The notes under the pieces were generated by a model. The model saw only the letters and a list, made by a program, of their open reading frames with translations, was not told the origin of the DNA and did no database searches. Shown piece by piece: positions 3,892 through 63,063 of a DNA stretch of 64,000 bases. The stretch covers positions 8,384 through 72,383 of the forward strand of contig JBKPCD010000144.1 in NCBI GenBank assembly GCA_046727175.1, written 5' to 3'. The stretch comes from Acidobacteriota bacterium (lineage in GTDB: Bacteria; Acidobacteriota; Vicinamibacteria; Vicinamibacterales; 2-12-FULL-66-21). A program made the position numbers and the translations under genes. Numbering within the stretch: the stretch's first letter is position 1; each line of letters starts with the position of its first letter.

Positions 3892-4128
3892 AGTTCCCTT
3901 TTCCCTTTCCCTTATCTTCTTTCGCTTATCTGCTTCACCGCCTTCACTACGCTCACAGAGAATCTTGTTTTCTCTTTTCTCCATTTCTCCTGTAAATCCT
4001 CTTCTCCCGCGCTCCTGTTCGCCGAATTATGCGCGAAGCATCTGCAGCAGATCCATCCGGCGTTGGATGACATATGCTCGGACTACGGATGCTGAAAACG
4101 CCAGCCTGGTTCCAAAATTCTCAGCCCA

Positions 4129-5556
4129 ATGCCCCGAAGCGCGAAGCTCCTCTTTGTTTCCGCCATGGCCGTCCTCCTCATGGCACAACGGCACGGGCCG
4201 TCGGTGCTGCCGCCGGATCCCGCAACAGATCTCGTCCGCACTCGCGCGTTTCTCACGACGACCGCCCCGACGCTCGATCTGTCAATCGACGGTGCGCTCC
4301 TCGGGAATGCGGTGTTCTCGATTCAGCGCGGCCTGTCGACAGTGCGATTCACCATCGATCGAAACACGATTCGGATGACGGGAAGCCAGCAAGGGGCGTC
4401 AACGGACGCCGTCATCGACATGATTCTCGCTCAGGTTCCGGCCGGGTCCACAATCGGCTGGACCCTTTCCGCCCCGCAATCCGCGAGCACTCGGCTCGAC
4501 GTGCGCAATGTCAACGCGTCCGAAGCGCCTGTCGACGTCTTTGACCTGAACGGTGCGGCAGGCCGCTACACGAGCCAGTCGGACCTGCTTCGTCGCAACG
4601 GTCCGATTGGACCGATCCGTGGCGTGAACAGCCGGCTGGTGCTCGCGTTTTTCTACCCATGGTGGGACCGCGCAGGGTGGGCGAGCCCGCTGTTCATCGA
4701 TGCACCACTACAACCGTACTCCACTGACGATCCTGCCGACCTCGCGCGGGTCATGAGTCAGGCGAAGAGCGCCGGGCTCGATGCGCTCGTCGTGTCGTGG
4801 GCGGGCAAAGACTACGCAGGAGGAATCGATCACCGGCGGATGCTGGCGTGCCTCACGGCGGCACAGACGGCCGGCACGAAGGTCGCCGCGCTCCTCGAAG
4901 CCACGGCCGCGAATCCGCAGCACGAGGACGGCGCCGCGGATCCCGATACCGTCTTCCGCTGGCTGGTGGACATCGTCGACAACTACGCGCCGCAGTCCGC
5001 CTATCTTCGCGTCGGCGGTCGTCCGGTCGTGATGGCGTACGCCGCGCAGCGCATGTCGCAGGCAGGATGGGCCGACGCCCTGAGTCGATTGCGTGCGAGC
5101 GGCCGAGACGTCCTGATGATCGGCGAGGGCATCAACGCGACGAGGCTCGGCGCGCTCGATGCGCTCTTTTACTATCCGTCGAACGACTTTCAGGGCGACA
5201 CGATTCGCGATTTCGATCGGACGCAAAGCGTCAGTGTTCGAACATATCACTTGCTACCCAACGACACCGGCATACGCAGGATCTGGGTCGCCACCGTCAG
5301 CCCCGGGTATGACGACACCCATCTGACGGATGGCCGCGTGCCGCGCGTCACCGACCGGGAGGGCGGCGCGTATTACGACCGTCAGTGGCAGGCCGCAATC
5401 GACCTGCGAGCCGACTGGATTGTAGTGACGACGTGGAACGAGTGGCTCGAGAACACCGAGATCGAGCCGAGCGTCCGGTACGGGGATCTGTATCTGACGA
5501 AGACGCGCACCTGGGCGGCCAAGTTTCATGAAAACCACGCGGTGGCGCGCCCGTAA
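4129..5556 (+). CDS. Secreted protein with a C-terminal GH99-like glycoside hydrolase domain
   Basis: Signal-peptide-like N-terminus. The C-terminal half has VLAFFYPWW, LVVSWAG, TVSPGYDDTH and VVTTWNEWLENTEIEPS, which resemble GH99-like domains. The N-terminal ~170 aa are unassigned. Confidence 0.5.
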   Translation: MPRSAKLLFVSAMAVLLMAQRHGPSVLPPDPATDLVRTRAFLTTTAPTLDLSIDGALLGNAVFSIQRGLSTVRFTIDRNTIRMTGSQQGASTDAVIDMILAQVPAGSTIGWTLSAPQSASTRLDVRNVNASEAPVDVFDLNGAAGRYTSQSDLLRRNGPIGPIRGVNSRLVLAFFYPWWDRAGWASPLFIDAPLQPYSTDDPADLARVMSQAKSAGLDALVVSWAGKDYAGGIDHRRMLACLTAAQTAGTKVAALLEATAANPQHEDGAADPDTVFRWLVDIVDNYAPQSAYLRVGGRPVVMAYAAQRMSQAGWADALSRLRASGRDVLMIGEGINATRLGALDALFYYPSNDFQGDTIRDFDRTQSVSVRTYHLLPNDTGIRRIWVATVSPGYDDTHLTDGRVPRVTDREGGAYYDRQWQAAIDLRADWIVVTTWNEWLENTEIEPSVRYGDLYLTKTRTWAAKFHENHAVARP

Positions 5557-5671
5557 TGGAAAGTGGAAAGTGGAAAGGGAAAAGGGAAAAGGGATAAGGG
5601 AAAAAAGGACCCAGTCTTCGCCGTTTGCCTTTTTCCTTTTCCTTGGCCCTTGTCCCTTGTCCCTTGTCCCC
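5557..5671. repeat. Purine/pyrimidine microsatellite hairpin filling the whole convergent spacer
   Basis: The left arm 5557-5608 is built of GGAAAGT/GGGAAAA/GGGATAA units. Loop 5609-5627. The right arm 5628-5671 is built of CCTTTTT/CCCTTGT units complementary to the left arm. Confidence 0.9.
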
Positions 5672-8223: not shown

Positions 8224-8379
8224 CAGGATGCTGAAAAACGCATCCTGCGTGAGGTTCCCGGTTCACAGGTTCCCAGTTCCCGGTTTTGGTTCTCATTACG
8301 GCGCAGAACCAGCACTTTCGAACCGGGAACCGGGAACGGGGAACCGGTGAACCTCGCTGGCCGCGGTTTTTCAGCGGCC
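8224..8379. repeat. Three-hairpin modular intergenic element (conserved termini, GGAACC-type core)
   Basis: 5' module CAGGATGCTGAAAAACGCATCCTG (8224-8247). Core arms 8251-8292 (GGTTCCC units) and 8320-8355 (GGGAACC units). 3' module GGCCGCGGTTTTTCAGCGGCC (8359-8379). The terminal loops TGAAAAAC and GTTTTTCA are reverse complements. Confidence 0.9.
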
Positions 8380-8387
8380 CGTTAGGG

Positions 8388-11036: not shown

Positions 11037-11123
11037 GAAAGTAAGAAGTTCGAAGTACGAAGTGAGAAGTAAAAGCTTCGCGACTCAAATCGGTCGTTCT
11101 TCACCTCTTACTTCTTACTTTCC
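11037..11123. repeat. Microsatellite hairpin (GAAGTAA-type units)
   Basis: GAAAGTAAGAAGTTCGAAGTACGAAGTGAGAAGTAAAAG ... TTCTTCACCTCTTACTTCTTACTTTCC, between the ankyrin gene start and the DUF1552 gene stop. Confidence 0.85.
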
Positions 11124-12533: not shown

Positions 12534-12565
12534 TGCCGACTCCTCTGCTGTCACTGTCCGCGTCT

Positions 12566-12776
12566 CGGAATTCGGGGTTCGGGATTCGCTAGCGTTCTTG
12601 CTTCGCCGGCCGGCCTCACACAGGAGGTCACGAGAAGGAGAACTACCTGTAGTTTCTCCTGGGTTCCTGGTCTCCTGTATTTATCTCGGCAGCCGCAAAC
12701 GTCTCAGACGCCGATTTTCGAACCCCGCCCTCCGACTCACCCGTAACGAACCCGAACCCCGAATCCCGAACCCCGG
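12566..12776. repeat. Nested palindromes: outer GGGTTCG-type arms enclosing an inner CAGGAG-type hairpin
   Basis: Outer arms: CGGAATTCGGGGTTCGGGATTCG (12566-12588) vs CGAACCCGAACCCCGAATCCCGAACCCCGG (12747-12776). Inner arms: ACAGGAGGTCACGAGAAGGAGAACTAC (12620-12646) vs CTGTAGTTTCTCCTGGGTTCCTGGTCTCCTGT (12647-12678). Confidence 0.85.
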
Positions 12777-12877
12777 CCTTCCGAGCTACAAAACTAGCTT
12801 TTCTCAGCGCGCGAGGGGCCCACCCCCGCGCGCTGCGGCTCGACTCGCTTCGCTCGCTCGCCGCGGCCGCAGGCGCT

Positions 12878-12901
12878 GCTACCGAGCTACCGAGCTACCG
12901 G
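12878..12901. repeat. Tandem 9-nt repeat CTACCGAGC x about 2.5, overlapping the DUF1592 stop codon
   Basis: GCTACCGAGCTACCGAGCTACCGG. The complementary unit GGCTCGGTAG recurs at 52058-52110. Confidence 0.85.
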
Positions 12902-15367: not shown

Positions 15368-15563
15368 CCAGATCGACCTACGAAGGACACAAACCCATCG
15401 CGCAGTATACGGCCGGATTGGGCCGATTGGAGCCCGGTTTTCAGCATCGAGGCCGCCGCGCGCCGAGCTTCAAGCCCGGCCTGTCTTCGACGGGCTGACG
15501 TGCTGACGACACGCGCATTTCACGCGGTCCACTGCGCGACACCCAACAGAGACATCCACCCGT

Positions 15564-15628
15564 GGCTGTCCCGTTTGGCTGTCCCGGTTGGCTGTCCCGG
15601 TTGGCTGTCCCGAGTGGCTGGCACCGGC
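15564..15628. repeat. Tandem 13-nt repeat GGCTGTCCCGGTT x about 4.5
   Basis: Unit starts at 15564, 15577, 15590, 15603 and 15616 (the last is degenerate). It lies ~200 nt upstream of the DUF1592 start and directly downstream of the creatininase-like stop. Confidence 0.9.
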
Positions 15629-15640
15629 GCCTGTCCCCTT

Positions 15641-20541: not shown

Positions 20542-20700
20542 AAGCCATGCAGCTGGCTCGTCGAATCGCGACGTTCAGGCACTACACCACGCTTGACGCT
20601 TACCGCACCGGAGTATTCGAGACCTCTTGAAACGAAGGATGGCGAGTATTGGATCGCGACCGGTGCCGGCCTGGTGCGCTGGAATCTGAACGGGCGCTAG
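20542..20700 (+). pseudogene. Possible relic of a sensor gene (single Reg_prop-like repeat)
   Basis: A start-less open frame ends in LETKDGEYWIATGAGLVRWNLNGR-stop. This resembles one two-component-regulator propeller repeat. It lies in a 300-bp spacer and its stop overlaps the sialidase stop. Confidence 0.2.
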
Positions 20701-21779
20701 CCGCGCGTGGGCCACTTCCCGTCCGGCATCGGAACCGGCTCGAACCGATTCGGATCGATCACGACGTGCTTGATCCGTTCGCGCTTCCACGTGTAGGTGA
20801 CGTGCAAGAGCCCATCGTGCGTCTGGATGATCGCCGGGTAGGAATACTCGCCGGGGTCGCTTTCGAGCACGAGCGCCGCCTCCCAGAGCTTTCCATCGCG
20901 CGACAGCGACACGTTCAACGGGGTCCGTCCCTTCGTCGTGTGGTTGTAGACGATGACGTGTCGGCCGTCGCGAAGCGTCACGGCATCGATGCCGGAGTTG
21001 GGATTCGGCAACGTTGTCAACGTCAGCGGCGTCCAGCTCTTCCCGCCGTCGTCGGACCACGTCTCGAAAACCCGCTCGGATCGCGTGCGGCCGACAGCCT
21101 GCAGCTTTCCGCCGGGATGAATCAGGATGCTCGGCTGAATCGCGTCGATCTCCTGGCCGTCAGCGGGCTTGGGCGGCTCGACGCTTGACCACGTGCGCCC
21201 GCGATCGACGGACCGCTCGAAGTGCACCCGCCATCGGCTCGGGTTGTCAGATGATTCGGTGCTGCTTCCGCTGAGCAGCGATCCATCTGCCAGCCGTACG
21301 GGCTTGTTCTTGATTGGGCCGAGAACGCCATCGGGCAACTGCTGCGCGGCACTCCATGTCGCACCGTCGTCGCGTGACGTGCGCAGCATGCCCCACCACG
21401 CCCTGGGCGTCGGGCCAAGCTTATAGAAAAGGAGCAACGAGTCGTCCGCTTCCCGAAACAGGACCGGGTTCCAGCACGGATACTGGCCATCGTGGTGCAC
21501 GCCGGTTGCAACCTCGATCGGCGCGGTCCATGCGCCGTTCACCTGACGTGACAGCCAGATGCCGACGTCATTAGCGCCTTCGCGCGTGCCGCCAAACCAT
21601 GCCGCAACCAGGCCATGGTCGGTCTCTGCGATCGTCGAGGCGTGCACGCTCGGAAACGGGGCCGTCGTGAAAACGAACCCCGAAATCACGATCGGCGCCT
21701 GCGTCGTCTGATTCCGGACGGCTCCGACAGCAACGATCGCCGAAACGCCGAGCAGACAGCAGGTTTTGAGAGGTGCCAT
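20697..21779 (-). CDS. BNR-repeat exo-alpha-sialidase-like glycoside hydrolase
   Basis: Signal peptide. Three Asp-box motifs: SRDDGATWS, SVDRGRTWS, SDDGGKSWT. ATG at 21779, with an in-frame TTG at 21782 as an alternative start. Confidence 0.8.
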   Translation of the reverse strand: MAPLKTCCLLGVSAIVAVGAVRNQTTQAPIVISGFVFTTAPFPSVHASTIAETDHGLVAAWFGGTREGANDVGIWLSRQVNGAWTAPIEVATGVHHDGQYPCWNPVLFREADDSLLLFYKLGPTPRAWWGMLRTSRDDGATWSAAQQLPDGVLGPIKNKPVRLADGSLLSGSSTESSDNPSRWRVHFERSVDRGRTWSSVEPPKPADGQEIDAIQPSILIHPGGKLQAVGRTRSERVFETWSDDGGKSWTPLTLTTLPNPNSGIDAVTLRDGRHVIVYNHTTKGRTPLNVSLSRDGKLWEAALVLESDPGEYSYPAIIQTHDGLLHVTYTWKRERIKHVVIDPNRFEPVPMPDGKWPTRG

Positions 21780-21786
21780 CAAACAA

Positions 21787-21968
21787 GAAGTTAGAAGCCA
21801 GAAGTTAGAGCGAACCGTATCGCGATCGCACTAACAGGATGCTGAAAGACGCATCCTGAATGGCAGATGGCTAATGGAAAAAACCTGAGCATTTTGCCAT
21901 CTCCCATTTGCCATTTTCCATCAGGCCGGCGTTTTTCAGCGGCCTGCTAAGTTCTGGATTCTAGATTC
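21787..21968. repeat. Outer inverted repeat (GAAGTTA-type units) bracketing the modular element
   Basis: GAAGTTAGAAGCCAGAAGTTAG (21787-21808) vs CTAAGTTCTGGATTCTAGATTC (21947-21968); 18 of 22 positions are complementary. Confidence 0.8.
21835..21945. repeat. Three-hairpin modular intergenic element, copy 1 (ATGGAAA/TTGCCAT core)
   Basis: CAGGATGCTGAAAGACGCATCCTG + core AATGGCAGATGGCTAATGGAAAAAACCTGAGCATTTTGCCATCTCCCATTTGCCATTTTCCATC + AGGCCGGCGTTTTTCAGCGGCCT. Confidence 0.9.
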
Positions 21969-22945
21969 TATCGTGAGCGCTTCGTGCCGAATCGTGCGCG
22001 GTAAATGCTCGGCGGGACGCCAAACCGCCGCTCGAAGGCACGGCGAAACGCATCCGCGCTTCGGTAACCCACCGAATCTGCGACGGTCTCGACGGTGTGT
22101 TCGCGGCTCGCGAGCCGCCGACGCGCCTCATCGAGCCGCAGTCGCTCGACGAACTCCGCCGGCGTCGTGTCGAACACCTGCTTGAAGCGCCGGCTGAAGT
22201 GACGTGCGCAGAGACCGGCGCGCTCCGCCAGGCGCTCGATCGACATGTCGTGGTGAAGGTGGCCCGACATCCACGCGGCAAGGTCGGCAAATCGATCGGA
22301 CGACTCGGTCTGAAACTGCAACGGTTCCGAGTACTGTTCCTGACCGCCGGCGCGCTTGAGGTACACAATCAGGTAACGCGCGACCGCGAGCGCCATCCGG
22401 CGGCCGTGGTCCTCTTCGATGAGCGACAGGGACAGATCGATTCCGGCCGTGACGCCGCCGGACGTATAGAACGGGCCGTCCTTCAGAAAGAGCGCGTTCG
22501 GATCGACGCGCAGCCGCGGAAACCGACGCGCGACGTCTGGCGCGAACTGCCAGTGCGTGGTCACCGAACGGTCGTCGAGGAGACCCGTCCGCGCCAGGCC
22601 ATAGATGCCCGTGCACACGGAGACGATCCGTCGGATGTTCGGCGCGCGGCGTTTCAACCAGGACGAAACCGCTGCGTTCGTGCGCGGCGCGCGCAGGCCG
22701 CACCCTCCGGGAACAACGATCGTGTCCAGACGCGGCGCCGTTGCCAGCGTCGCGTCCGGATGGAGGCGCAGGCCCGACTCCGCGCGGAACGGCCGGTTCG
22801 TCACGCCCAGCACCACGAGCTCGTACCTCGGTCGGCCGTCGTCTTCCTGAACGACGTTCGCACCCGCAAACGCCTCCATCGGCCCGACAATGTCGAGCGC
22901 CGTCACGTTGTCGAAGCCGATGAACCCTATGCGTCTGGTCGTCAC
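21968..22945 (-). CDS. GlxA-family transcriptional regulator (DJ-1/PfpI domain + AraC HTH)
   Basis: N-terminal GATase1-like domain (IGFIGFDNVTALDIVGP, IVSVCTG). C-terminal AraC-type HTH (VADSVGYRSADAFRRAFERRFG). GTG start. Confidence 0.85.
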   Translation of the reverse strand: MTTRRIGFIGFDNVTALDIVGPMEAFAGANVVQEDDGRPRYELVVLGVTNRPFRAESGLRLHPDATLATAPRLDTIVVPGGCGLRAPRTNAAVSSWLKRRAPNIRRIVSVCTGIYGLARTGLLDDRSVTTHWQFAPDVARRFPRLRVDPNALFLKDGPFYTSGGVTAGIDLSLSLIEEDHGRRMALAVARYLIVYLKRAGGQEQYSEPLQFQTESSDRFADLAAWMSGHLHHDMSIERLAERAGLCARHFSRRFKQVFDTTPAEFVERLRLDEARRRLASREHTVETVADSVGYRSADAFRRAFERRFGVPPSIYRARFGTKRSR

Positions 22946-22989: not shown

Positions 22990-23058
22990 ACAGGAGATGA
23001 GAAGATCAGGAGTCATTTTTGTTTGGGAAAATGCACTCCTGGCCTCCTGATCTCCTGT
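22990..23058. repeat. CAGGAGAT-type hairpin in the divergent glxA-like/ADOP promoter region
   Basis: ACAGGAGATGAGAAGATCAGGAGT (22990-23013), 21-nt AT-rich loop, ACTCCTGGCCTCCTGATCTCCTGT (23035-23058). Confidence 0.85.
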
Positions 23059-25646: not shown

Positions 25647-25967
25647 AGCTGAATCACTAATCCCTGATCGTGAATCCCTCATCCTCGAATCCTCGAATCC
25701 TCGAATCCTCGAATCCTCGAATCAGAATCCTCGAATCCTCGAATCCTCGAATCAGAATCCTCGAATCCTCGAATCCTCGAATCAGAATCCTCGAATCGCT
25801 GAATCCTCGAATCCTTGAATCATTCGATCAGGCAACTTGACCATTGAATCCTGGACTCGCGGCCGAGTCCCAACGTGCAATCGAGCGATTCGACGATTCA
25901 GCGATTCGAGGGATCCGAGGAATCCAACGATGAAAGATTCACGATTAGTGATCAGTGATCAGTGATT
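25647..25967. repeat. ~320-bp imperfect palindrome built from an 8-nt microsatellite (ATCCTCGA / TCGAGGAT)
   Basis: The left side 25681-25823 has about 13 perfect ATCCTCGA units plus degenerate copies, with a 30-nt higher-order period (three units + ATCAGA) x3. The right side 25879-25967 carries complementary GATTCGAG-type units. The outermost GAATCACTAATCCCTGATCGTGAATC pairs with GATTCACGATTAGTGATCAGTGATCAGTGATTC. Confidence 0.9.
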
Positions 25968-28649: not shown

Positions 28650-28790
28650 TATGGGAACACAAGAGGAACGGCTCACGGCGTTCGGCTTGGGGCCGCCCGG
28701 GCTTTGGCCGAAGCCGTTAGGGTAAGGCTAGCGGCGCTGTGTTGAGGTCATTCAAACGTCCAGAGTGAAGAGCCATGAGCCAAGAGCCGA
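28650..28790. repeat. GGCT(N)-unit / GAGCC(N)-unit degenerate repeat spacer
   Basis: GGCTCATATGGG..GGCTCACGGCGTTCGGCTTGGGGCCGCCCGGGCTTTGGCCGAAGCC .. GAAGAGCCATGAGCCAAGAGCCGA. Confidence 0.6.
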
Positions 28791-30229: not shown

Positions 30230-30324
30230 CCGGATTCGGGTTCCGGATTCACAGGTTCCACGTTCCAGGTCGGTTCTTCTCCGGAACCTACCCGGAACCC
30301 GGAACCTGTGAACCCGGAACCTGG
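30230..30324. repeat. GGAACC-type microsatellite hairpin (core related to 8251-8355, without the conserved termini)
   Basis: CCGGATTCGGGTTCCGGATTCACAGGTTCCACGTTCCAGGTCGGTTC / TTCT / CCGGAACCTACCCGGAACCCGGAACCTGTGAACCCGGAACCTGG. It shares TTCACAGGTTCC with the 8224-8379 element. Confidence 0.9.
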
Positions 30325-39477: not shown

Positions 39478-39553
39478 ACAGGAGACCAGGAGATCAGGAG
39501 GACATCTTCTGGAACTCTTGTTGTTGGCCTTCGTGGCCTTGGTGGTCTTCGTG
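39478..39553. repeat. CAGGAGA-unit run plus a 9-nt GGCCTTCGT-type tandem in a convergent spacer
   Basis: ACAGGAGACCAGGAGATCAGGAGGA (39478-39502) and GGCCTTCGTGGCCTTGGTGGTCTTCGTG (39526-39553). Confidence 0.8.
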
Positions 39554-47521: not shown

Positions 47522-48613
47522 ATGACGCTGATCGAGACAACGGGAACCGTGACGCCCGACGTCTCCGCCACAGGCGACATGTCCTTCGCGGAGCGGCGGC
47601 GAACAGCCGATCGCATCTTCAAGGGTGCGCTGATGTTCAACGCCGCCCTGACGGTGCTCTGGCTGTTCGCACTGGTCACGCGGCGCGATGTGTTCTTCTT
47701 CGCGCACTACGAACTCGATCGCGCCGCCCTTGGGCGTGTCGGCGGCGGCATCCTCTTCTTCTACGTCATCTGGGGCTTCATCTGGTACGGCGTGAAGACG
47801 CTGCTCCTGAAATACTGGGTCGGGTTCTCGAAGGAAGAGCGCCGCCAGGCATTTTCCTCCCGCATGGATGAACCCTTCGACGTCTCGGCGTTCACCGCGC
47901 GACACTCCGAGCGCCGTATCCGCATCGCCGACATGATTGGCCGGCGCGGACGCTTCATCACGCTGGCAATGGCGGGCTTCTTCTACTTGTACGCGCGCGT
48001 GTCGGCGGAACAGTCCCCGGCTTTCGCGACGTTCTTCCTCCAGGACAATCTCTTCGACGCCGTCGCCACGAGCTGGATCTTCCTGGCGTTCTACTACCTG
48101 AACGGCTTTCTCGCGGCGGCGTTCTACGGACCGCAGTCGCGCGTCATGGACGGCGTCCTCGCGCGCGCGAATTGCCTGCTCATCACGACATTGTGGACGG
48201 CCTTCAAGTTCGTGATGGTGCCGCTCGGCGCAAGGCTGGCGGCCGTGTTTCCGCCTGACGCGTTCGCTCCGGTTTTCGCCCTGATCTGGGGCTCGTATAT
48301 CGCGTCGGACGCGCTGTCCGAAGTCGGCGGCGCGCTCTTCGGCAAACAGAAGATTCGCGTGCGCGGCGTGGGTGACGTGAACCGTAAATCGATCGGCGGC
48401 ACGGTCTCCGGTTTCGTCGGATCGCTCGTGCTCTGCCTGGCCGTCGTTCTGTCGCGCGGCCTTCCGGCGTCCTGGATCGTTCTCGCCGTCATCATCTCGA
48501 TCTCGAATACGCTTCTCGAGCTGTTCTCGCCGCGCGGCACCGACGACCTGGTCATGGCGACGGGCAACGCGGTGATTTGCCTGGCGTTCGGGCTCGTCAT
48601 GTACGGATCGTGA
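47522..48613 (+). CDS. Polytopic membrane protein of the CdsA/dolichol-kinase (CTP_transf_1-like) superfamily
   Basis: Multiple TM helices. The C-terminal ASDALSEVGGALFGKQKIRV..NRKSIGGTVSGFVGSLV..ELFSPRGTDDL resembles cytidylyltransferase/polyprenol-kinase motifs. It starts 12 nt after the GH31 stop. Confidence 0.5.
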   Translation: MTLIETTGTVTPDVSATGDMSFAERRRTADRIFKGALMFNAALTVLWLFALVTRRDVFFFAHYELDRAALGRVGGGILFFYVIWGFIWYGVKTLLLKYWVGFSKEERRQAFSSRMDEPFDVSAFTARHSERRIRIADMIGRRGRFITLAMAGFFYLYARVSAEQSPAFATFFLQDNLFDAVATSWIFLAFYYLNGFLAAAFYGPQSRVMDGVLARANCLLITTLWTAFKFVMVPLGARLAAVFPPDAFAPVFALIWGSYIASDALSEVGGALFGKQKIRVRGVGDVNRKSIGGTVSGFVGSLVLCLAVVLSRGLPASWIVLAVIISISNTLLELFSPRGTDDLVMATGNAVICLAFGLVMYGS

Positions 48614-49971
48614 GAGCCGTTCCGCTCTTCTTGCTCGTCGCTTTCGTTGTCGCGTCGTCCAGCGGCCGAACGTCTCCTCCGGCCGGAGTTCCGGCGCGAG
48701 CGATCCACGCCACGGAAGATTCGGGAACTCGTTTCAACGCGTTCACTACACCTTTTGAGACCGCTTCCATTGACAGCGACGACTGGCCGCAGTTCCGCGG
48801 GCCAGACGGCCAGGGCCATTCGGCCGCACGCGATCTTCCGGTGGAATGGAGTGAATCGCACAACATCGCGTGGAAGGTCCCGGTCCCCGGCCTCGGGTGG
48901 TCGTCTCCCGTCGTCGGGGGCGGGCGGGTGTGGCTGACGACGGCAACTGGCGACCGCGATGTTTCGTTGCGCCTGTTGGCTTACGAGATCGACAGCGGCC
49001 GCGAGCTCCTGAACGTCGAAGTGTTCCGGGTTCGAGGCGCCGAGGCCATCAATCCGAGGAACAGCCATGCATCGCCAACGCCGCTCCTCGAGGGTGACCG
49101 CGTCTACGTGCATTTCGGCGCGCTGGGGACGGCTGCGCTGACGACAGCCGGCGAAATCGTCTGGAAGGCGAGGTTCCCTTACACGTCACAACACGGCGCC
49201 GGCGGGTCGCCCGTGCTCGTGGGCGACCTGCTCGTCCTCAGCTGCGACGGCGCAGATGCCGCGTTCGTCATCGCCGTCGACAAGCGCACCGGAAACACGC
49301 GGTGGAAGACGGCACGACGGTATCCCTGGGACCAGGCCTATTCGACGCCGCTCGTGATTCGGGTCGGCGAACGCGATCAGATCGTCAGCGTGGGCGCCTA
49401 TCGAGCCGCGGCGTACGAGCCGGAATCGGGCAAGGAGATCTGGCGCGTTGGATATGCCGACGGGTTCTCGAACGTCCCTCGCCCGATCTACGGTCACGGT
49501 CTCGTGTACATCGCGACCGGATTTCAACAGCCCCTGCTCCTCGCTGTTCGCCCCGACGGCTCAGGCGACATCACGAAATCGCACGTCGCATGGACGCTCC
49601 GGCGCGCGGCGCCGCTGACGCCCTCGCCGCTTCTCGCTGGTGACGAGCTCTACATCGTCAACGATGCCGGCATCGCGTCGTGTCTCGACGCACGGTCAGG
49701 CGACGTGCACTGGCAACAGCGGCTCGGCGGAACGTACTCGGCGTCGCCGACGTTTGCCGACGGCCGAATCTACTTCCTCTCCGAGCAGGGGGCCGCGACG
49801 GTCATCGCACCCGGTCGGGAGTTTCGCAAGATCGCGACGAACGCGCTGGAGGGCGCCGCGCTTGCCTCACCCGCCGTGTCGGGCCACTCCCTGTTCGTCC
49901 GAAGCGATCGTCATCTCTATCGAATCACGGCGAGCAACGTCCGGCTGGACGAGACCTTCCGACATCGTTAG
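48610..49971 (+). CDS. Secreted PQQ-like (BamB-type) beta-propeller repeat protein
   Basis: GTG start overlaps the upstream TGA (GTGA). Signal VRAVPLFLLVAFVVASSSG. WPQFRGPDGQG and repeated propeller blades. Confidence 0.75.
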   Translation: MRAVPLFLLVAFVVASSSGRTSPPAGVPARAIHATEDSGTRFNAFTTPFETASIDSDDWPQFRGPDGQGHSAARDLPVEWSESHNIAWKVPVPGLGWSSPVVGGGRVWLTTATGDRDVSLRLLAYEIDSGRELLNVEVFRVRGAEAINPRNSHASPTPLLEGDRVYVHFGALGTAALTTAGEIVWKARFPYTSQHGAGGSPVLVGDLLVLSCDGADAAFVIAVDKRTGNTRWKTARRYPWDQAYSTPLVIRVGERDQIVSVGAYRAAAYEPESGKEIWRVGYADGFSNVPRPIYGHGLVYIATGFQQPLLLAVRPDGSGDITKSHVAWTLRRAAPLTPSPLLAGDELYIVNDAGIASCLDARSGDVHWQQRLGGTYSASPTFADGRIYFLSEQGAATVIAPGREFRKIATNALEGAALASPAVSGHSLFVRSDRHLYRITASNVRLDETFRHR

Positions 49972-49983
49972 GATGTTCGCTCA

Positions 49984-50101
49984 CAGGATGCTGAAAACGC
50001 ATTCTGAATGGCAGAGGGTAAATGGAAAATGGAAAAAACCTGAGCACTTTGCCATCTCCCATTTGCCATTTTCCATCAGGCCGGTTCTCTTTCAGTGGCC
50101 T
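49984..50101. repeat. Three-hairpin modular intergenic element, copy 2 (near-identical to 21835-21945)
   Basis: CAGGATGCTGAAAACGCATTCTG + AATGGCAGAGGGTAAATGGAAAATGGAAAAAACCTGAGCACTTTGCCATCTCCCATTTGCCATTTTCCATC + AGGCCGGTTCTCTTTCAGTGGCCT. A 37-nt exact match to copy 1: TTTGCCATCTCCCATTTGCCATTTTCCATCAGGCCGG. Confidence 0.9.
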
Positions 50102-50125
50102 GCTAATCAACAGTGAGCGTGACCG

Positions 50126-50935
50126 TTGGAACGACGAACGTTTCTCACATCGACACTCGGCGCGGGACTGATGGCAACCGCGAGCGCCGCGGGCGCATCC
50201 GGCCAGGGCGGCACCAAACCCCCGGCCGCGCCCGAGTTCTACGTCTGGCGACAGTACATCCTGCGCACCGGAACGCAGCCGCGTCGGCTGGCAGAGTTTC
50301 TTCAGAACGCCGCCATCCCCGCGCTCAATCGTCTCGGGCACAAGCCGGTCGGCGTGTTCGAGGTGTTCGCCGGCCTGGCCACGCCTGGTGTGTTCGTGCT
50401 GACACCATTCGCGTCGCTCGAGAGCCTTGCAACCATCGAAAGCGAGATCGATCGCGATCAGGAGTACATTCGCGCTGCCGACGCGTATCTCACCGCACCG
50501 GCGACGGATCCGGTGTACGTCCGCCAGGTACTGTCACTGCTGGCAGCGTTCCCCAACGTGCCGCGCGTCGAAGTTCCGTCCGCAACCGCTACGAAGAGTC
50601 CCCGGCTGTTCGAGCTGCGGACCTACGAGAGCCACAACGAACGGGCGCACCGCGCGAAGGTGCGGATGTTCACGGAAATGGGGGAAGTGGATATTTTCCG
50701 CCGCTGTGGCCTGACGCCAGTCTTCTTCTCGCGCACGCTCGTGGGGCCGCGCATGCCAAGCCTCGTGTACATGCTCGTGCACGAAAACATGGCCGCACGC
50801 GAGAAGAGCTGGGACGCGTTCCGCAACGATCCCGACTGGAAGAAGCTGCCGGCGACGCCTGGCTACAGCGACGCCGAGATCGTCAGCAATATCACCACTG
50901 TCTTTCTTCGACCCACCGCCTATTCTCAAATCTGA
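50126..50935 (+). CDS. TAT-exported NIPSNAP-family protein
   Basis: TTG is the first possible start (an in-frame stop lies 6 nt upstream). MERRTFLTSTLGAGLMATASAAGA. Two NIPSNAP-like halves (FYVWRQYIL.., LFELRTYESHNERAHRAKVRMF). Confidence 0.75.
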   Translation: MERRTFLTSTLGAGLMATASAAGASGQGGTKPPAAPEFYVWRQYILRTGTQPRRLAEFLQNAAIPALNRLGHKPVGVFEVFAGLATPGVFVLTPFASLESLATIESEIDRDQEYIRAADAYLTAPATDPVYVRQVLSLLAAFPNVPRVEVPSATATKSPRLFELRTYESHNERAHRAKVRMFTEMGEVDIFRRCGLTPVFFSRTLVGPRMPSLVYMLVHENMAAREKSWDAFRNDPDWKKLPATPGYSDAEIVSNITTVFLRPTAYSQI

Positions 50936-52048: not shown

Positions 52049-52057
52049 GCGTCGCCG

Positions 52058-52110
52058 GTAGCTTGGTGGGCTCGGTGGCTCGGTAGTTCGGTGGCTCGGT
52101 AGCTCGCTTT
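52058..52110. repeat. Tandem GGCTCGGT(A/G)G-type units
   Basis: GGTAGCTTGGTGGGCTCGGTGGCTCGGTAGTTCGGTGGCTCGGTAGCTCG. This is the reverse complement of the unit at 12878-12901. Confidence 0.85.
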
Positions 52111-52154: not shown

Positions 52155-52360
52155 ATCCGCGGACATCTGCGAAAATCCGCGTCTCGTACGAACTCTTCAG
52201 ATCCGCGTCAATCCGCGAGAATCCGCGTCTCGTCGGTAGGTTTATCCGCGGACATCCGCGAAAATCCGCGTCTCGTGTGAAGGTCCTATCCGCGGACGTT
52301 CGCGGAAATCCGCGTCTCGTCGGAGGTCTTCTGCTCCGCCTCCATCCGCGTAAATCCGCG
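52155..52360. repeat. Array of 14 ATCCGCG heptamers in five clusters with strict 10-bp internal spacing
   Basis: Heptamers (two degenerate) start at 52155/65/75, 52201/11/21, 52244/54/64, 52288/98/308 and 52344/54. The cluster consensus is ATCCGCGGACATCCGCGAAAATCCGCGTCTCGT. Clusters are spaced 43-56 nt apart. The array spans the stop codon of the DAACS gene. Confidence 0.9.
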
Positions 52361-53587
52361 TCTCAGCCCGACGAGCGCCGCCAGTGCCATATCCGCCGTA
52401 ACGTTGGCCGTCGTGCGAAACGCGTTCGGAATCGGATCGACGGCCAGCAGCATCCCGATTGATTCCGCGGGAAGACCGGCGGCCATCATGACCGGCAGCA
52501 CGACGTAGACCGATCCGCTGGGCACGCCGCCCACCGTAAAACTGGCGAGCACGGCGACGAGCACCGTCTGCACCAGCCGCGGCGCGTCGAGCGGCACGCC
52601 GTACAGCCGGGCGACGAAGCAGACAACGGTCAGGAACCAGATCGGCGACGCGTACTTGAACATCGCGACGGCCAGCGGCAGCACGACCCCGCTCACCGCG
52701 GACGGCACCCGAAGCACGGTTCCCGCGCCCTCGAGCAGGGCCGGCAGCGAGGCGAGCGAGGAATGCGTGCTGAACGCCATCACCTGCGCGGGCGCGGCCG
52801 CTCGCGCGAAGTCGCGCGCCCTGCAACATCCTGCAAGACCCACGAGCGGATACAGCGCACTCGTAAACACGATCTGCGCGACGGATGCCGTGACCACGTA
52901 GAACAGGATCGCGCTCACAATCGAGACGCCGAGCTGCAGCATCATGCCCAGCGCCAGCGCGAACACTCCGATCGGCGCAGCGGCGACGACCCACGACAGG
53001 ACGATCGTCATCGTGGCGTCGACGGCAGCGAAGAAGCGGACGATGGGCTCCCGCCGGTCGACGGCGAGGCGTCCGAGCGCGAGGCTGAAGACGATCGTGA
53101 AGACGAGCAGCGGCAGCATCGCGCCATCGGCTGCGGCTTTCAGCGCGTTGGTCGGAATCAGGCTCGTAATCCAGCTCTCGAACGACGGGTTAGCCGTCGC
53201 CGGTGTCGCCGTGCCTGCGGACCTGGCCCGAAGCGTTTCGGTGACCGCTGGATCGACCGGCATGCGAGCGAACACGGAAGGCATCACGGCCCCGCTTATT
53301 GCGCCCGGGATGAGAAGGAGGGCGATCATCAGCGCGGCCGCGCGGACTCCTGCGCGCCGCACGAGGTCCGTGTTCCCCCCGCTCGCGAGCACGATGATCA
53401 CTTTCGAGACGACGAGCGGGACGATCGTCATCAGGATGGCGTTGATCCACAAGGTGCCGGTGATCCCGACGATCGATTCGACGAACGTGCGTGGCGGGTT
53501 CGGCAGGGTCGTCATGCCGGCGCCGACGATGACCCCAGCGACGAGCGCAGCGAGCGCCTGCGTGCCGACACTGCGTGTGCTCCGCAT
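52286..53587 (-). CDS. Dicarboxylate/amino acid:cation symporter (DAACS/SDF family)
   Basis: Start at MRSTRSVGTQALAALVAGVIVGAG. SDF-type motif AAGLPAESIGMLLAVDPIPNAFRTTANVTADMA. The last ~25 codons are encoded by the ATCCGCG repeat array. Confidence 0.85.
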   Translation of the reverse strand: MRSTRSVGTQALAALVAGVIVGAGMTTLPNPPRTFVESIVGITGTLWINAILMTIVPLVVSKVIIVLASGGNTDLVRRAGVRAAALMIALLLIPGAISGAVMPSVFARMPVDPAVTETLRARSAGTATPATANPSFESWITSLIPTNALKAAADGAMLPLLVFTIVFSLALGRLAVDRREPIVRFFAAVDATMTIVLSWVVAAAPIGVFALALGMMLQLGVSIVSAILFYVVTASVAQIVFTSALYPLVGLAGCCRARDFARAAAPAQVMAFSTHSSLASLPALLEGAGTVLRVPSAVSGVVLPLAVAMFKYASPIWFLTVVCFVARLYGVPLDAPRLVQTVLVAVLASFTVGGVPSGSVYVVLPVMMAAGLPAESIGMLLAVDPIPNAFRTTANVTADMALAALVGLRRGFTRMEAEQKTSDETRISANVRG

Positions 53588-53652: not shown

Positions 53653-53676
53653 CAGGAGATCAGGAGGTCAGGAGAT
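53653..53676. repeat. CAGGAGAT-unit run
   Basis: CAGGAGATCAGGAGGTCAGGAGAT lies between the GNAT stop and the DAACS start. The same unit family occurs at 22990-23058, 39478-39502 and 12620-12678. Confidence 0.8.
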
Positions 53677-61493: not shown

Positions 61494-61575
61494 GGCTTTT
61501 GGCTTGGGGGCTTTTTGGGCTTCGTGCTTTTAGGCCTTTGGCGGGCGCAGAGCCACGAGCCTCGAGCCATGAGCC
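61494..61575. repeat. GGCTTTT-type / GAGCCA-type degenerate unit run
   Basis: GGCTTTTGGCTTGGGGGCTTTTTGGGCTTCGTGCTTTTAGGCCTTTGGCGGG followed by CAGAGCCACGAGCCTCGAGCCATGAGCC. Confidence 0.7.
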
Positions 61576-62993
61576 TACTGTTTTCGATGCACCCACACGC
61601 TGTCGAAGAGCGGCGCCGGCGCGCCTCGCACGTCGGCAATGACGGCATGACGCGATTGGACAATGGGAATCCCGAGCGCCGCGGTGATGTCACGCAGCGC
61701 GGGGCGTGCCTCGTTGTGAACGAGCGCGCCGTCCGGTGCGAGCATGCCGGCGATGTTGCTCATCGCAAGCATCAGCTCCGCATCATCGAAATACGGAAGG
61801 ATGTTTGTCGCGATGATCAAGTCGAATGGCTGTCCGTCGAGACGTTCGGTGACGATGTCGACCGGCTCGGCGGTCAGGACGTGCGCGGCGGCTGACCCGA
61901 CTCGCACCGTCTTCTCCAGGTGGCCCGCCGTTGACGCCGTGCGCCGGCGCTCCGACGCTTCGTCCCCAATCGATCTCCCGAGCCGTTCAAAGTAGTCGCG
62001 ATATTCCTGCCGCAGCTTTACCGTCTCGCTCTCCGCAATCCCGCTGACCAGCGTCAACACCGGCGGCGTGCGGTGTGAGTCGCGCAGGTGCTCGACCACA
62101 CGCGGATTGATGTCGGCGCCGACAACCGCGAGATCGTCGGCGCCAGCGAGACCGAGGGACAGGAGCGCGTCGATTACCGCCCACGGCTGGTAGCTCTCCG
62201 GCGGACCATCTTCCAGGAGTCCCGTCCTTGGAGCGAGGTCGAGCCCTGGCCCCACGATCAGCACGCGACGGATGCGGCGATCGGGCTCCAGAGACTGGAG
62301 CACGCCCAAGCCAAGATACACGACGTATCCCGCCTCGACAGCGGTGTCGGTGCTGAGGCCGCGCGTGCGATACAGCTCCGCGATCGCGTCAGCTGCCTGC
62401 GCGGAGCGTTGCGCGACGAACTCCTTTTCATGGACGAACCGCATCGCCCGCACGTATTCGCGAAGGAGTCCCGCATTCCGTTCACGGCGATCGGGATACG
62501 TCGCGTTCACGAGGCTGCGGAAGTAGGCGAGCCGCGGATCGGACGCCGGCGAATCGATCGCGCGCAGGAGCGCAGCCGCGCGCGAGCGAACCGGCGCGGG
62601 GATCCGGGAGAGATCGAGCCGGGACGTCCGCAGGAACTCCGTGCGTTCCTGCACGTCGAGGCCGTCGACAAGTGCCTTCGCGCTGAGTGCCGGCTCGATC
62701 GGCGGAAGCGATGTGAACCGCATCGACTGGAGCAGATAGAAGACGAGGTGATCGAGGTCCCCTTCGCGAACCCGTCGCAGATTCGTCTGGCGCACCCGCT
62801 CGACGTACGACGGGAACTCGTCCGCCGTGATGCCGCGAGCGCTGAGCGGCACGTGGAAAGGGGCCACGTCGGTCCAACTGATTCGCCTGACCGACAGGCG
62901 GTCTTGATCGTCGGTAGCGGTGGCCGTGCACGTGATGACCACCCATACCAATCCACAGACCGCCGCAGTCGAGAGAACTCGGGCGCGCAGCAC
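61575..62993 (-). CDS. Hypothetical protein with a C-terminal class I SAM-methyltransferase-like (CheR-like) region and an N-terminal signal/anchor
   Basis: RVLIVGPGLDLAPR..VVGADINPRVVEHL..FDLIIATNILPYFDDAELMLAMSNIAGMLAPDGALVHNE. The N-terminal 200 aa are unassigned. Confidence 0.5.
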   Translation of the reverse strand: MLRARVLSTAAVCGLVWVVITCTATATDDQDRLSVRRISWTDVAPFHVPLSARGITADEFPSYVERVRQTNLRRVREGDLDHLVFYLLQSMRFTSLPPIEPALSAKALVDGLDVQERTEFLRTSRLDLSRIPAPVRSRAAALLRAIDSPASDPRLAYFRSLVNATYPDRRERNAGLLREYVRAMRFVHEKEFVAQRSAQAADAIAELYRTRGLSTDTAVEAGYVVYLGLGVLQSLEPDRRIRRVLIVGPGLDLAPRTGLLEDGPPESYQPWAVIDALLSLGLAGADDLAVVGADINPRVVEHLRDSHRTPPVLTLVSGIAESETVKLRQEYRDYFERLGRSIGDEASERRRTASTAGHLEKTVRVGSAAAHVLTAEPVDIVTERLDGQPFDLIIATNILPYFDDAELMLAMSNIAGMLAPDGALVHNEARPALRDITAALGIPIVQSRHAVIADVRGAPAPLFDSVWVHRKQ

Positions 62994-63014
62994 CGCATTC
63001 AGCGCTGTGGATTC

Positions 63015-63063
63015 GGGGCGATTCCCTCGCCGCCCCGAACCCTGAACCCTGAACCTTGAACTT
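63015..63063. repeat. Small GC hairpin plus a GAACCCT x3-4 tandem
   Basis: GGGGCG-ATTCCCTCGC-CGCCCC, then GAACCCTGAACCCTGAACCTTGAACTT, running up to the stop of the TonB-dependent receptor gene. Confidence 0.8.

Follow-up and report, generated by a model that had tools for sequence, protein, structure and literature searches.

A probable IS5-family-derived miniature transposable element framing heptamer-repeat hairpins in Vicinamibacterales

The window analyzed in this study, a 64,000-nucleotide (nt) stretch of contig JBKPCD010000144.1 from an Acidobacteriota bacterium, harbors two near-identical intergenic elements, copy A (21835-21946) and copy B (49984-50102), which the original prediction had described as three-hairpin units of a REP/MITE-like or small-RNA-like family. 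[quoted passage not shown] The MITE part of the earlier description is borne out by inverted ends, target duplications, dispersal and ends of IS5 type, while the repetitive extragenic palindrome (REP) and small-RNA parts are not. The element is ordinary mobile DNA of soil Vicinamibacterales and does not represent a new RNA gene. MITEs with ends of IS5 type are already well documented; for this family and its IS, a literature search found no description.

Results

The original prediction had located both copies correctly, and their exact limits are those given above. The 37-nt block in which they were said to agree without exception (TTTGCCATCTCCCATTTGCCATTTTCCATCAGGCCGG) is present exactly two times, on the + strand at 21893 and 50048, and in none of 100 shuffles. 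Across their full length A and B match in 103 of 120 alignment columns, with one additional ATGGAAA unit in B, and their GC content is 47-50% compared to 63.8% for the window. No gene-like frame is present, as had been claimed: the longest stop-free stretch comprises 37-39 codons in A and B (37-52 over A, B and the third copy described next) and spans the whole element.

The element is bounded by inverted repeats (CAGGATGCTGAAA.. / ..TTTCAGCGGCCTG). In A, in B and in a third copy, C, the left 30 nt can be aligned to the reverse-complemented right 30 nt, and nhmmer returns opposite-strand self-matches (copy A, E 9.5e-12; copy B, E 3.6e-8). Positions 5-6 are AT in one end and CC in the other (GGATGC vs GGCCGC), and the stem partners of these positions change to match, with the result that each end stays self-complementary. 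Copy C, found in the window by a profile of A and B, has a 5' hairpin (CAGGATGC-TGAAAAAC-GCATCCTG) and a 3' hairpin (GGCCGC-GGTTTTTCA-GCGGCC) that are the same end hairpins as in A and B, framing a GGTTCnC/GnGAACC heptamer hairpin that is quite unlike the A/B center. A profile of the terminal inverted repeats (TIRs) picked out, in addition, a solo end-like remnant, CGGATGCTGAAAACGCCAGCCTGG (Table 1). Copy C, this remnant at 4087-4108, the terminal inverted repeats and the 4-nt direct repeats flanking the copies had all been missed in the original prediction.

These direct repeats have the properties of target-site duplications. Identical 4-nt flanks are present in 21 of 47 complete copies of the family, compared to 6.0 +/- 2.0 (maximum 15 in 20000 trials) when the right flanks are permuted. 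Copies with CTAG were set aside because this palindrome cannot tell direct from inverted repeats; among the 31 copies with a left flank other than CTAG, 12 are direct-identical (flank types CTAA, TCAA, GTAG, CTAC, CTAT, TTAG and CCAG) and 1 is inverted-identical. Three further copies show 5-nt CTAAA/CTAAA flanks. The commonest left flanks are CTAG (16 copies), CTAA (6), CCAG (5) and TTAG (3), and the commonest right flanks are CTAA and CTAG (11 each) together with TTAG and GTAG (4 each). According to ISfinder descriptions, members of the IS5 group duplicate 4 nt at targets of YTAR/CTAG type.

At three loci, a gene takes the place of the hairpin behind the left end of the element. One of these loci (L038) contains an IS of ~1.31 kb bounded by CAGGATGCTGAAAAACGCATCGTGA and TTTTTCAGCATCCTG and flanked by TTAG / CTAG. 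Its open reading frame (ORF) of 364 amino acids matches Pfam DUF772 (3.9e-22) and DDE_Tnp_1 (5.8e-12), and the protein scores 274 bits against NCBIfam NF033581 (IS5 family transposase; cut-off 140) and 201 against the IS1182 model, below the cut-off of 270. Homologs of this transposase number in the thousands; the best 120 are 86-100% identical and lie nearly all on metagenome contigs of 1.2-3 kb, a pattern typical of a repeated IS that breaks assemblies. Two other sets of ISs were reached via protein identity, and thus independently of any DNA pattern. The loci of a 90%-identical homolog, P0327 (L095-L102), hold a 1297-bp IS with the ends CAGGATGCTGAAAAA / TTTTTCAGAATCCTG, which is CTAG-flanked at several distinct sites. 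The closest named relative in the plasmid collection, annotated 'IS5-like element ISAzs10 family transposase', is from plasmid pAB510f of Azospirillum sp. B510 (62.7% amino acid identity), and the ISAzs10 copy there (L115) runs from TTAG and CAGGCCGCGGAAAAAGG to CCTTTTTCCGCGTCCTG and TTAG, with termini CAGGCCGCGGAAAAA...TTTTTCCGCGTCCTG. The left terminus of the MITE is identical at 15 of 15 positions to the IS ends of L038 and L095-L102, its right terminus, CAGGCCGCTGAAAAA, at 14 of 15 positions to the left end of ISAzs10, and MITE and full ISs alike are situated between 4-nt YTAG repeats. The ends of the P0327-type IS are not self-complementary; self-complementarity therefore belongs to the MITE and to the left end of L038, not to the clade.

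Flanks and termini together bear on a REP/REPIN-type origin, in which paired palindromes would be mobilized by a REP-associated tyrosine transposase (RAYT, a Y1 enzyme). Two inverted short palindromes separated by a spacer, able to form one long hairpin and present in multiple intergenic copies, are the kind of structure to be expected from a REP doublet (REPIN). PMC3733652 describes REPs as palindromes of 20-40 bp that carry a conserved tetranucleotide, GTAG or CGTC, at one of their ends. In the present family this tag is absent: the adjacent 4-mers vary and co-vary left with right as direct repeats, hence are target duplications, which REPs lack, and the termini equal those of DDE-type IS5-family elements. 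Judged by tag, flanks and termini, an origin of the REP/REPIN type is very improbable.

The wider distribution of the family was obtained from a scan of one genome per bacterial or archaeal species with the 19-nt left-end pattern CAGGATGCTGAAAN{0,1}ACGCAT. Seventy-nine loci were returned, 18 of them isolated chance matches in coding DNA of unrelated taxa and 61 with MITE or IS context; 58 of the latter are in metagenome-assembled genomes (MAGs) labelled Vicinamibacterales or Acidobacteriota. Single MAGs contain at least 15, at least 13, at least 7 and at least 7 copies, numbers to be taken as minimum estimates, since the pattern had to match exactly over 19 nt. The architecture is constant: between two 4-nt flanks, CAGGATGCTGAAAAACGCATCCTG is followed by a central hairpin composed of ATGGnnn units and then by CAGGCCGnCTTTTTCAGCGGCCTG. 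Lengths cluster at 112-121 nt, and deletion derivatives of 45-95 nt retain the ends alone (L058, 45 nt; L027, 65 nt; L070). Using 24 nt of the window-type core as query, the metagenome scan gave 12 further window-type copies, 8 of them on separate contigs of one sample, each of the eight with different flanks; the number of ATGGAAA units in the metagenome copies ranges from 1 to 4. Copies beyond the original two thus exist, one more in the window and dozens in other genomes and metagenomes.

Two side observations concern individual members. Locus L108 (~4640-4790) apparently has a GGCCGG-type end on both sides (..GCCGGCCTGGATGG .. CCATCAGGCCGGC..), which suggests that the ends are exchangeable or become homogenized between sides. 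The element contigs at L046, L063 and L066 have been assigned to MAGs carrying the labels Acetobacteraceae, Burkholderiales and Alphaproteobacteria. Since L066 and L068, the latter from an Acidobacteriota MAG, are nearly one and the same locus, mis-binning is a likelier explanation than transfer.

In the mechanism proposed for the MITE, a DDE transposase from a full-length IS elsewhere in the cell would recognize the ~15-nt termini (CAGGATGCTGAAAAA; CAGGCCGCTGAAAAA inverted) and would move the element by cut-and-paste into YTAR-type sites (CTAG, CTAA, TTAG and similar), with each insertion producing a 4-nt target duplication. On this reading, the two end hairpins (5' and 3') are the transposon ends, each happening to be self-complementary. 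The central hairpin is a passenger made of inverted 7-nt arrays, its unit number shifting by slippage and its sequence differing between subfamilies. Mobilization in trans by the partner transposase is inferred, as is the absence of a host function.

Folding analysis confirmed the three hairpins of the original prediction for copy B, where they constitute the minimum-free-energy fold, and for 37 of 44 distinct family members folded singly as whole elements. In copy A, by contrast, the left half can also pair with the right, which favors a single extended fold-back (-52.9 kcal/mol, z -6.1). For the central region, covariation is not scorable column by column because the heptamer units slip out of register; each copy was folded individually in place of a column-wise alignment, and a hairpin of 18-39 bp was obtained in all 44 distinct copies (mean z -3.6). 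Heptamers anchored by ATGG/CCAT make up the arms of this hairpin, and their three variable positions take different bases in different MAG-specific subfamilies. When 33 copies were aligned with MAFFT and analyzed with RNAalifold, just the two end hairpins emerged. The 5' hairpin is invariant in the sample, in part owing to the search pattern, which includes this stretch, and it carries for that reason no information on structure; in the 3' hairpin, one pair is kept through a two-sided change (C-G to U-A) in 3 sequences. In the best reading of the three-hairpin structure, two self-complementary transposon ends enclose an internal palindromic passenger.

The stable folds, the two-sided change in the 3' hairpin and the central palindrome retained while its sequence differs between subfamilies could each be taken to indicate a structured non-coding or cis-regulatory RNA family, with the three hairpins as functional transcript fold. 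Palindromy is, however, equally a property at the level of DNA, the invariant 5' hairpin is uninformative, and target duplications plus IS-identical ends account for the element boundaries without any RNA. Rfam gave no match in the whole window at the gathering threshold and, at E<=10 on the locus, a chance snoRNA as sole match (16.9 bits vs a threshold of 42). Scans around A and B revealed no promoter-like and 0 terminator-like sites. The genomic context, established with a gene map of ORFs with GC content higher at third than at first codon positions (GC3>GC1) and checked against Pfam-supported genes, points in the same direction. About 45 of 47 copies are intergenic, and relative to the flanking genes they are distributed as same/same (11), opposite/opposite (10), convergent (10-11) and divergent (8). 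Co-directional contexts with 11 same vs 10 opposite, and copies in both divergent and convergent spacers, show no preference for an orientation; this agrees with random DNA insertion and speaks against an orientation-dependent RNA element. An RNA family is therefore very unlikely, and the small-RNA-like part of the original prediction is not supported; individual copies may have undergone exaptation.

Could the element be a duplicated host terminator or mRNA-stabilizing hairpin that is not mobile? Copies A, B and C are each placed ~6-25 nt from the stop codon of the upstream gene and the hairpin bases are GC-rich, both of which would suit such a role. However, a T-run follows none of the stems, the scan above gave 0 terminator-like sites around A and B, and 8 copies are located between divergent genes. 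Target duplications, IS-type ends and dozens of near-identical copies in unrelated spacers are unexpected for a terminator. We consider this explanation highly improbable, in agreement with the original prediction that a simple terminator is not involved. Individual copies may have a secondary effect on read-through or on neighboring transcripts.

The gene map also upheld the claim that A and B are intergenic and in the same absolute orientation, with neighbors on the minus strand at the one locus and on the plus strand at the other. Copy A is situated between genes for an AraC/DJ-1 regulator (21968-22945) and a BNR_2 protein (20697-21779), both minus strand; an exact look-up of this BNR_2 protein of the window returned no record. 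Copy B is between genes for a PQQ_2 beta-propeller protein (48577-49971) and a NIPSNAP-like protein (50126-50935), both plus strand, with the stop codon 12 nt before the element and the next start 23 nt after it.

In orthologous spacers, three states were observed: an element of the same type, no element, and an element of another subtype in the opposite orientation. In the PQQ_2-NIPSNAP spacer of a relative at 98% amino acid identity (L081), the same type-1 copy is present in the same place with few substitutions. At 90% identity and with the same downstream genes (L080), the spacer is 73 nt long and without trace of the element, this spacer being too diverged for base-precise comparison with the filled site. 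At 81% identity (L116, element at 1911-2039, compared to 49972-50125 of the window), the spacer has a type-2 element with GGTTCnC cargo, the subtype of copy C, in the opposite orientation. This element adjoins the homologous right flank (CAACACGTGAGCGTGGAC vs CAACAGTGAGCGTGAC), and its first 60 nt are nearly identical to copy C. Independent insertions into the same spacer are the simplest reading, and the spacer would represent either an insertion hot spot or a case of in-place turnover. Two more candidate loci were rejected for this comparison, L082 (P0006) because its downstream region is not syntenic, and L117 (P0005) because it is not syntenic.

Copy A is carried by relatives at 99% identity (L084) with one extra heptamer unit and a 2-nt loop deletion, differences that point to slippage. 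The BNR_2 orthologs at 89% identity (L087-L094) were considered as empty site of copy A and rejected, since the deletion they show ends at the element terminus. In their region ~2280-2450, compared to 21947-22660 of the window, residues 46-99 are all that is left of AraC/DJ-1, and the junction GCC/TG/TTAG/AGCGATCGCG retains the last 2-4 nt of the element together with the duplicated TTAG. A deletion ending at the terminus of copy A implies that the element marks a rearrangement or deletion breakpoint. In the same loci, the MacB gene and the octamer hairpin that belongs to it have the inverse of their orientation in the window.

Heptamer-repeat hairpins are found both inside and outside the element. 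The same transposon ends frame at least three of them: ATGGnnn (A, B, most loci), GGTTCnC (C, L116) and GGGAAAn (L063). The cargo of L063 resembles a hairpin at 5555-5665 of the window that lacks the ends. Copy A is itself located inside a host heptamer-repeat hairpin (Table 1). Tandem arrays of period 7 or 8 are concentrated in spacers of the window: intergenic DNA makes up 12% of the sequence and holds 23 of the 29 arrays, and one is present in 14 of the 27 spacers with a length of 40 nt or more; most are inverted pairs, sometimes nested (12565-12775). The inverted 7-8-nt arrays form long imperfect hairpins with mostly locus-specific units. Certain units recur: CAGGAGAT is found at 4 loci and GGTTCCC and GAGCCAn at 2 each, and the complement of GCTACCGA (12878) is found at 52056. 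Like unit types flank MITE copies in other Vicinamibacterales MAGs. Heptamer hairpins in Acidobacteria were not described in the literature searched.

Other repeats of the window were recorded alongside. After the MacB-like gene, at 25659-25925, ATCCTCGA is repeated 18 times and followed ~70 nt downstream by the inverse array GATTCGAGG; the position of this array is conserved in L087 and the unit count is different. At 52155-52364, a 46-nt unit with three ATCCGCG motifs (4.7 repeats) is placed between convergent genes and into their ends. A 13-nt unit, TGGCTGTCCCGGT (4.5 repeats, 15563-15637), lies in the spacer 15368-15640.

Table 1. Coordinates of the MITE copies, their flanks and the heptamer/octamer repeat sites in the window.
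Feature	Position	Strand	Details
Solo end-like remnant	4087-4108	+	TIR-profile nhmmer E 6e-4; spacer upstream of gene 4129-5556
MITE copy C	8224-8381	+	type 2, 158 nt; flanks CCAG / TTAG; found by profile of A and B
Host heptamer hairpin, left arm	21787-21810		AGAAGTT AGAAGCC AGAAGTT AGA
Copy A, left target-site duplication	21831-21834		CTAA; identical to 21947-21950
MITE copy A	21835-21946	+	type 1, 112 nt; profile search, folding, alignment
Copy A, left end/hairpin	~21835-21858
Copy A, central hairpin	~21859-21919		ATGGnnn heptamers
Copy A, right end/hairpin	~21920-21946
Copy A, right target-site duplication	21947-21950		CTAA, 4 nt
Host heptamer hairpin, right arm	21951-21970		GTTCTGG ATTCTAG ATTCTA
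Copy B, left flank	49980-49983		CTCA; one mismatch to right flank
MITE copy B	49984-50102	+	type 1, 119 nt
Copy B, right flank	50103-50106		CTAA
Heptamer/octamer array	3894-3935
Heptamer/octamer array	5557-5670
Heptamer/octamer array	11037-11122
Heptamer/octamer array	12565-12900
Heptamer/octamer array	22990-23058
Heptamer/octamer array	25659-25966
Heptamer/octamer array	28768-28788
Heptamer/octamer array	30239-30321
Heptamer/octamer array	39479-39553
Heptamer/octamer array	52056-52106
Heptamer/octamer array	53653-53676
Heptamer/octamer array	61550-61576
Heptamer/octamer array	62998-63061

Discussion

The interpretation of the element as an IS5-derived MITE has to be weighed against several observations that do not sit easily with it. 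In about half of the copies, the flanks are imperfect. Metagenomes searched for an exact empty site corresponding to copy A gave 0 matches, and a nucleotide-precise empty site was not recovered. A tblastn search with the transposase against the 64-kb window and all 8-kb loci identified L038 plus two contig-end fragments, L076 and L078, and nothing else, with no match in the window; the full-length ISs are seen in other Acidobacteriota MAGs and on short metagenome contigs, not alongside the genome of the window. Furthermore, the two ends differ and are nevertheless each kept self-complementary, and the central palindrome is kept across subfamilies despite sequence change. A purely parasitic element need not show either of these features. 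For the palindrome, selection on structure and DNA-level processes, such as slippage or templated repair within the palindrome, cannot be told apart here.

In a different view of the element, the transposon ends would be a frame that spreads interchangeable heptamer hairpins, the hairpins would be a functional, previously undescribed class of Vicinamibacterales intergenic sequence and the self-complementarity of the ends would be selected. Different heptamer hairpins within the same ends, the resemblance of the L063 cargo to a hairpin without ends and the concentration of such arrays in intergenic DNA are in line with it. We regard it as unlikely overall. If the hairpins were functional, they may serve as protein-binding arrays or as sites of RNA processing or stability, or they may be structures arising from a dedicated mechanism, and the MITE may be one route of their dissemination. 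The origin of the heptamer hairpins and of their position between transposon ends is the only part of the finding that could prove new. As variable cargo of the MITE and as an intergenic feature throughout the genome, these hairpins are the more interesting lead from this work and, if functional or produced by a specific mechanism, would merit separate study.

The IS5-derived MITE, as the preferred interpretation, has its chief value in annotation: once recognized, the element will not be misread as an RNA gene. Soil Vicinamibacterales, a dominant soil lineage that has received little study, harbor both the family and its IS partner in abundance. In genomes of this group, IS copies break assemblies (contigs of 1.2-3 kb), and the elements mark breakpoints of rearrangement or deletion, as exemplified by the deletion in AraC/DJ-1.

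Among known systems, the ISAzs10-like ISs of the IS5 family, with relatives of 1.30-1.31 kb in Acidobacteriota MAGs and soil metagenomes, share with the MITE the terminal CAGG-nn-GC-(T/G)-GAAAAA and the 4-nt CTAG/TTAG flanking repeats. Distinct from these ISs, the MITE has no transposase, measures 112-158 nt compared to 1.3 kb, and has an interior that is not recognizably IS-derived. Distinct from the ISs of Acidobacteriota, whose ends match each other, the two ends of the MITE differ at positions 5-6.

Regarding the cargo, heptamer tandem repeats in intergenic DNA are represented by the short tandemly repeated repetitive (STRR) sequences of heterocystous cyanobacteria. Intergenic tandem repeats of the heptamer TAACTGA occur also in Beggiatoaceae (PMC4679880), and an excess of heptameric repeats has been noted (PMC4692102). 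The likeness is in 7-nt units that are confined to intergenic DNA and present at many loci per genome; the difference is that here the units vary by locus, are usually arranged as inverted hairpin arrays and, in one case, lie within a transposon frame.

REPs and REPINs (PMC3733652) resemble the element in being short intergenic palindromes, often in inverted pairs and with the possibility of a long hairpin. They differ from it with respect to the GTAG/CGTC tag, which the element does not have, the target duplications, which it does have, and the ends, which here are those of a DDE-type IS and not of the RAYT system.

A further parallel is BrickBuilt of Porphyromonas gingivalis, in which an internal minisatellite is enclosed between IS5-like ends (PMC4596501). 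Both elements are non-coding, have IS5-family ends as found in ISs of their own organism group and contain internal tandem repeats of variable number; BrickBuilt, like the present family, occurs in 10-20 copies per genome and shows no transposase remnant (PMC4596501). BrickBuilt is much longer and built from 23-nt direct repeats, whereas here 7-nt units in two inverted arrays form a hairpin; the target duplications are more regular here (4 nt), and the host belongs to another phylum.

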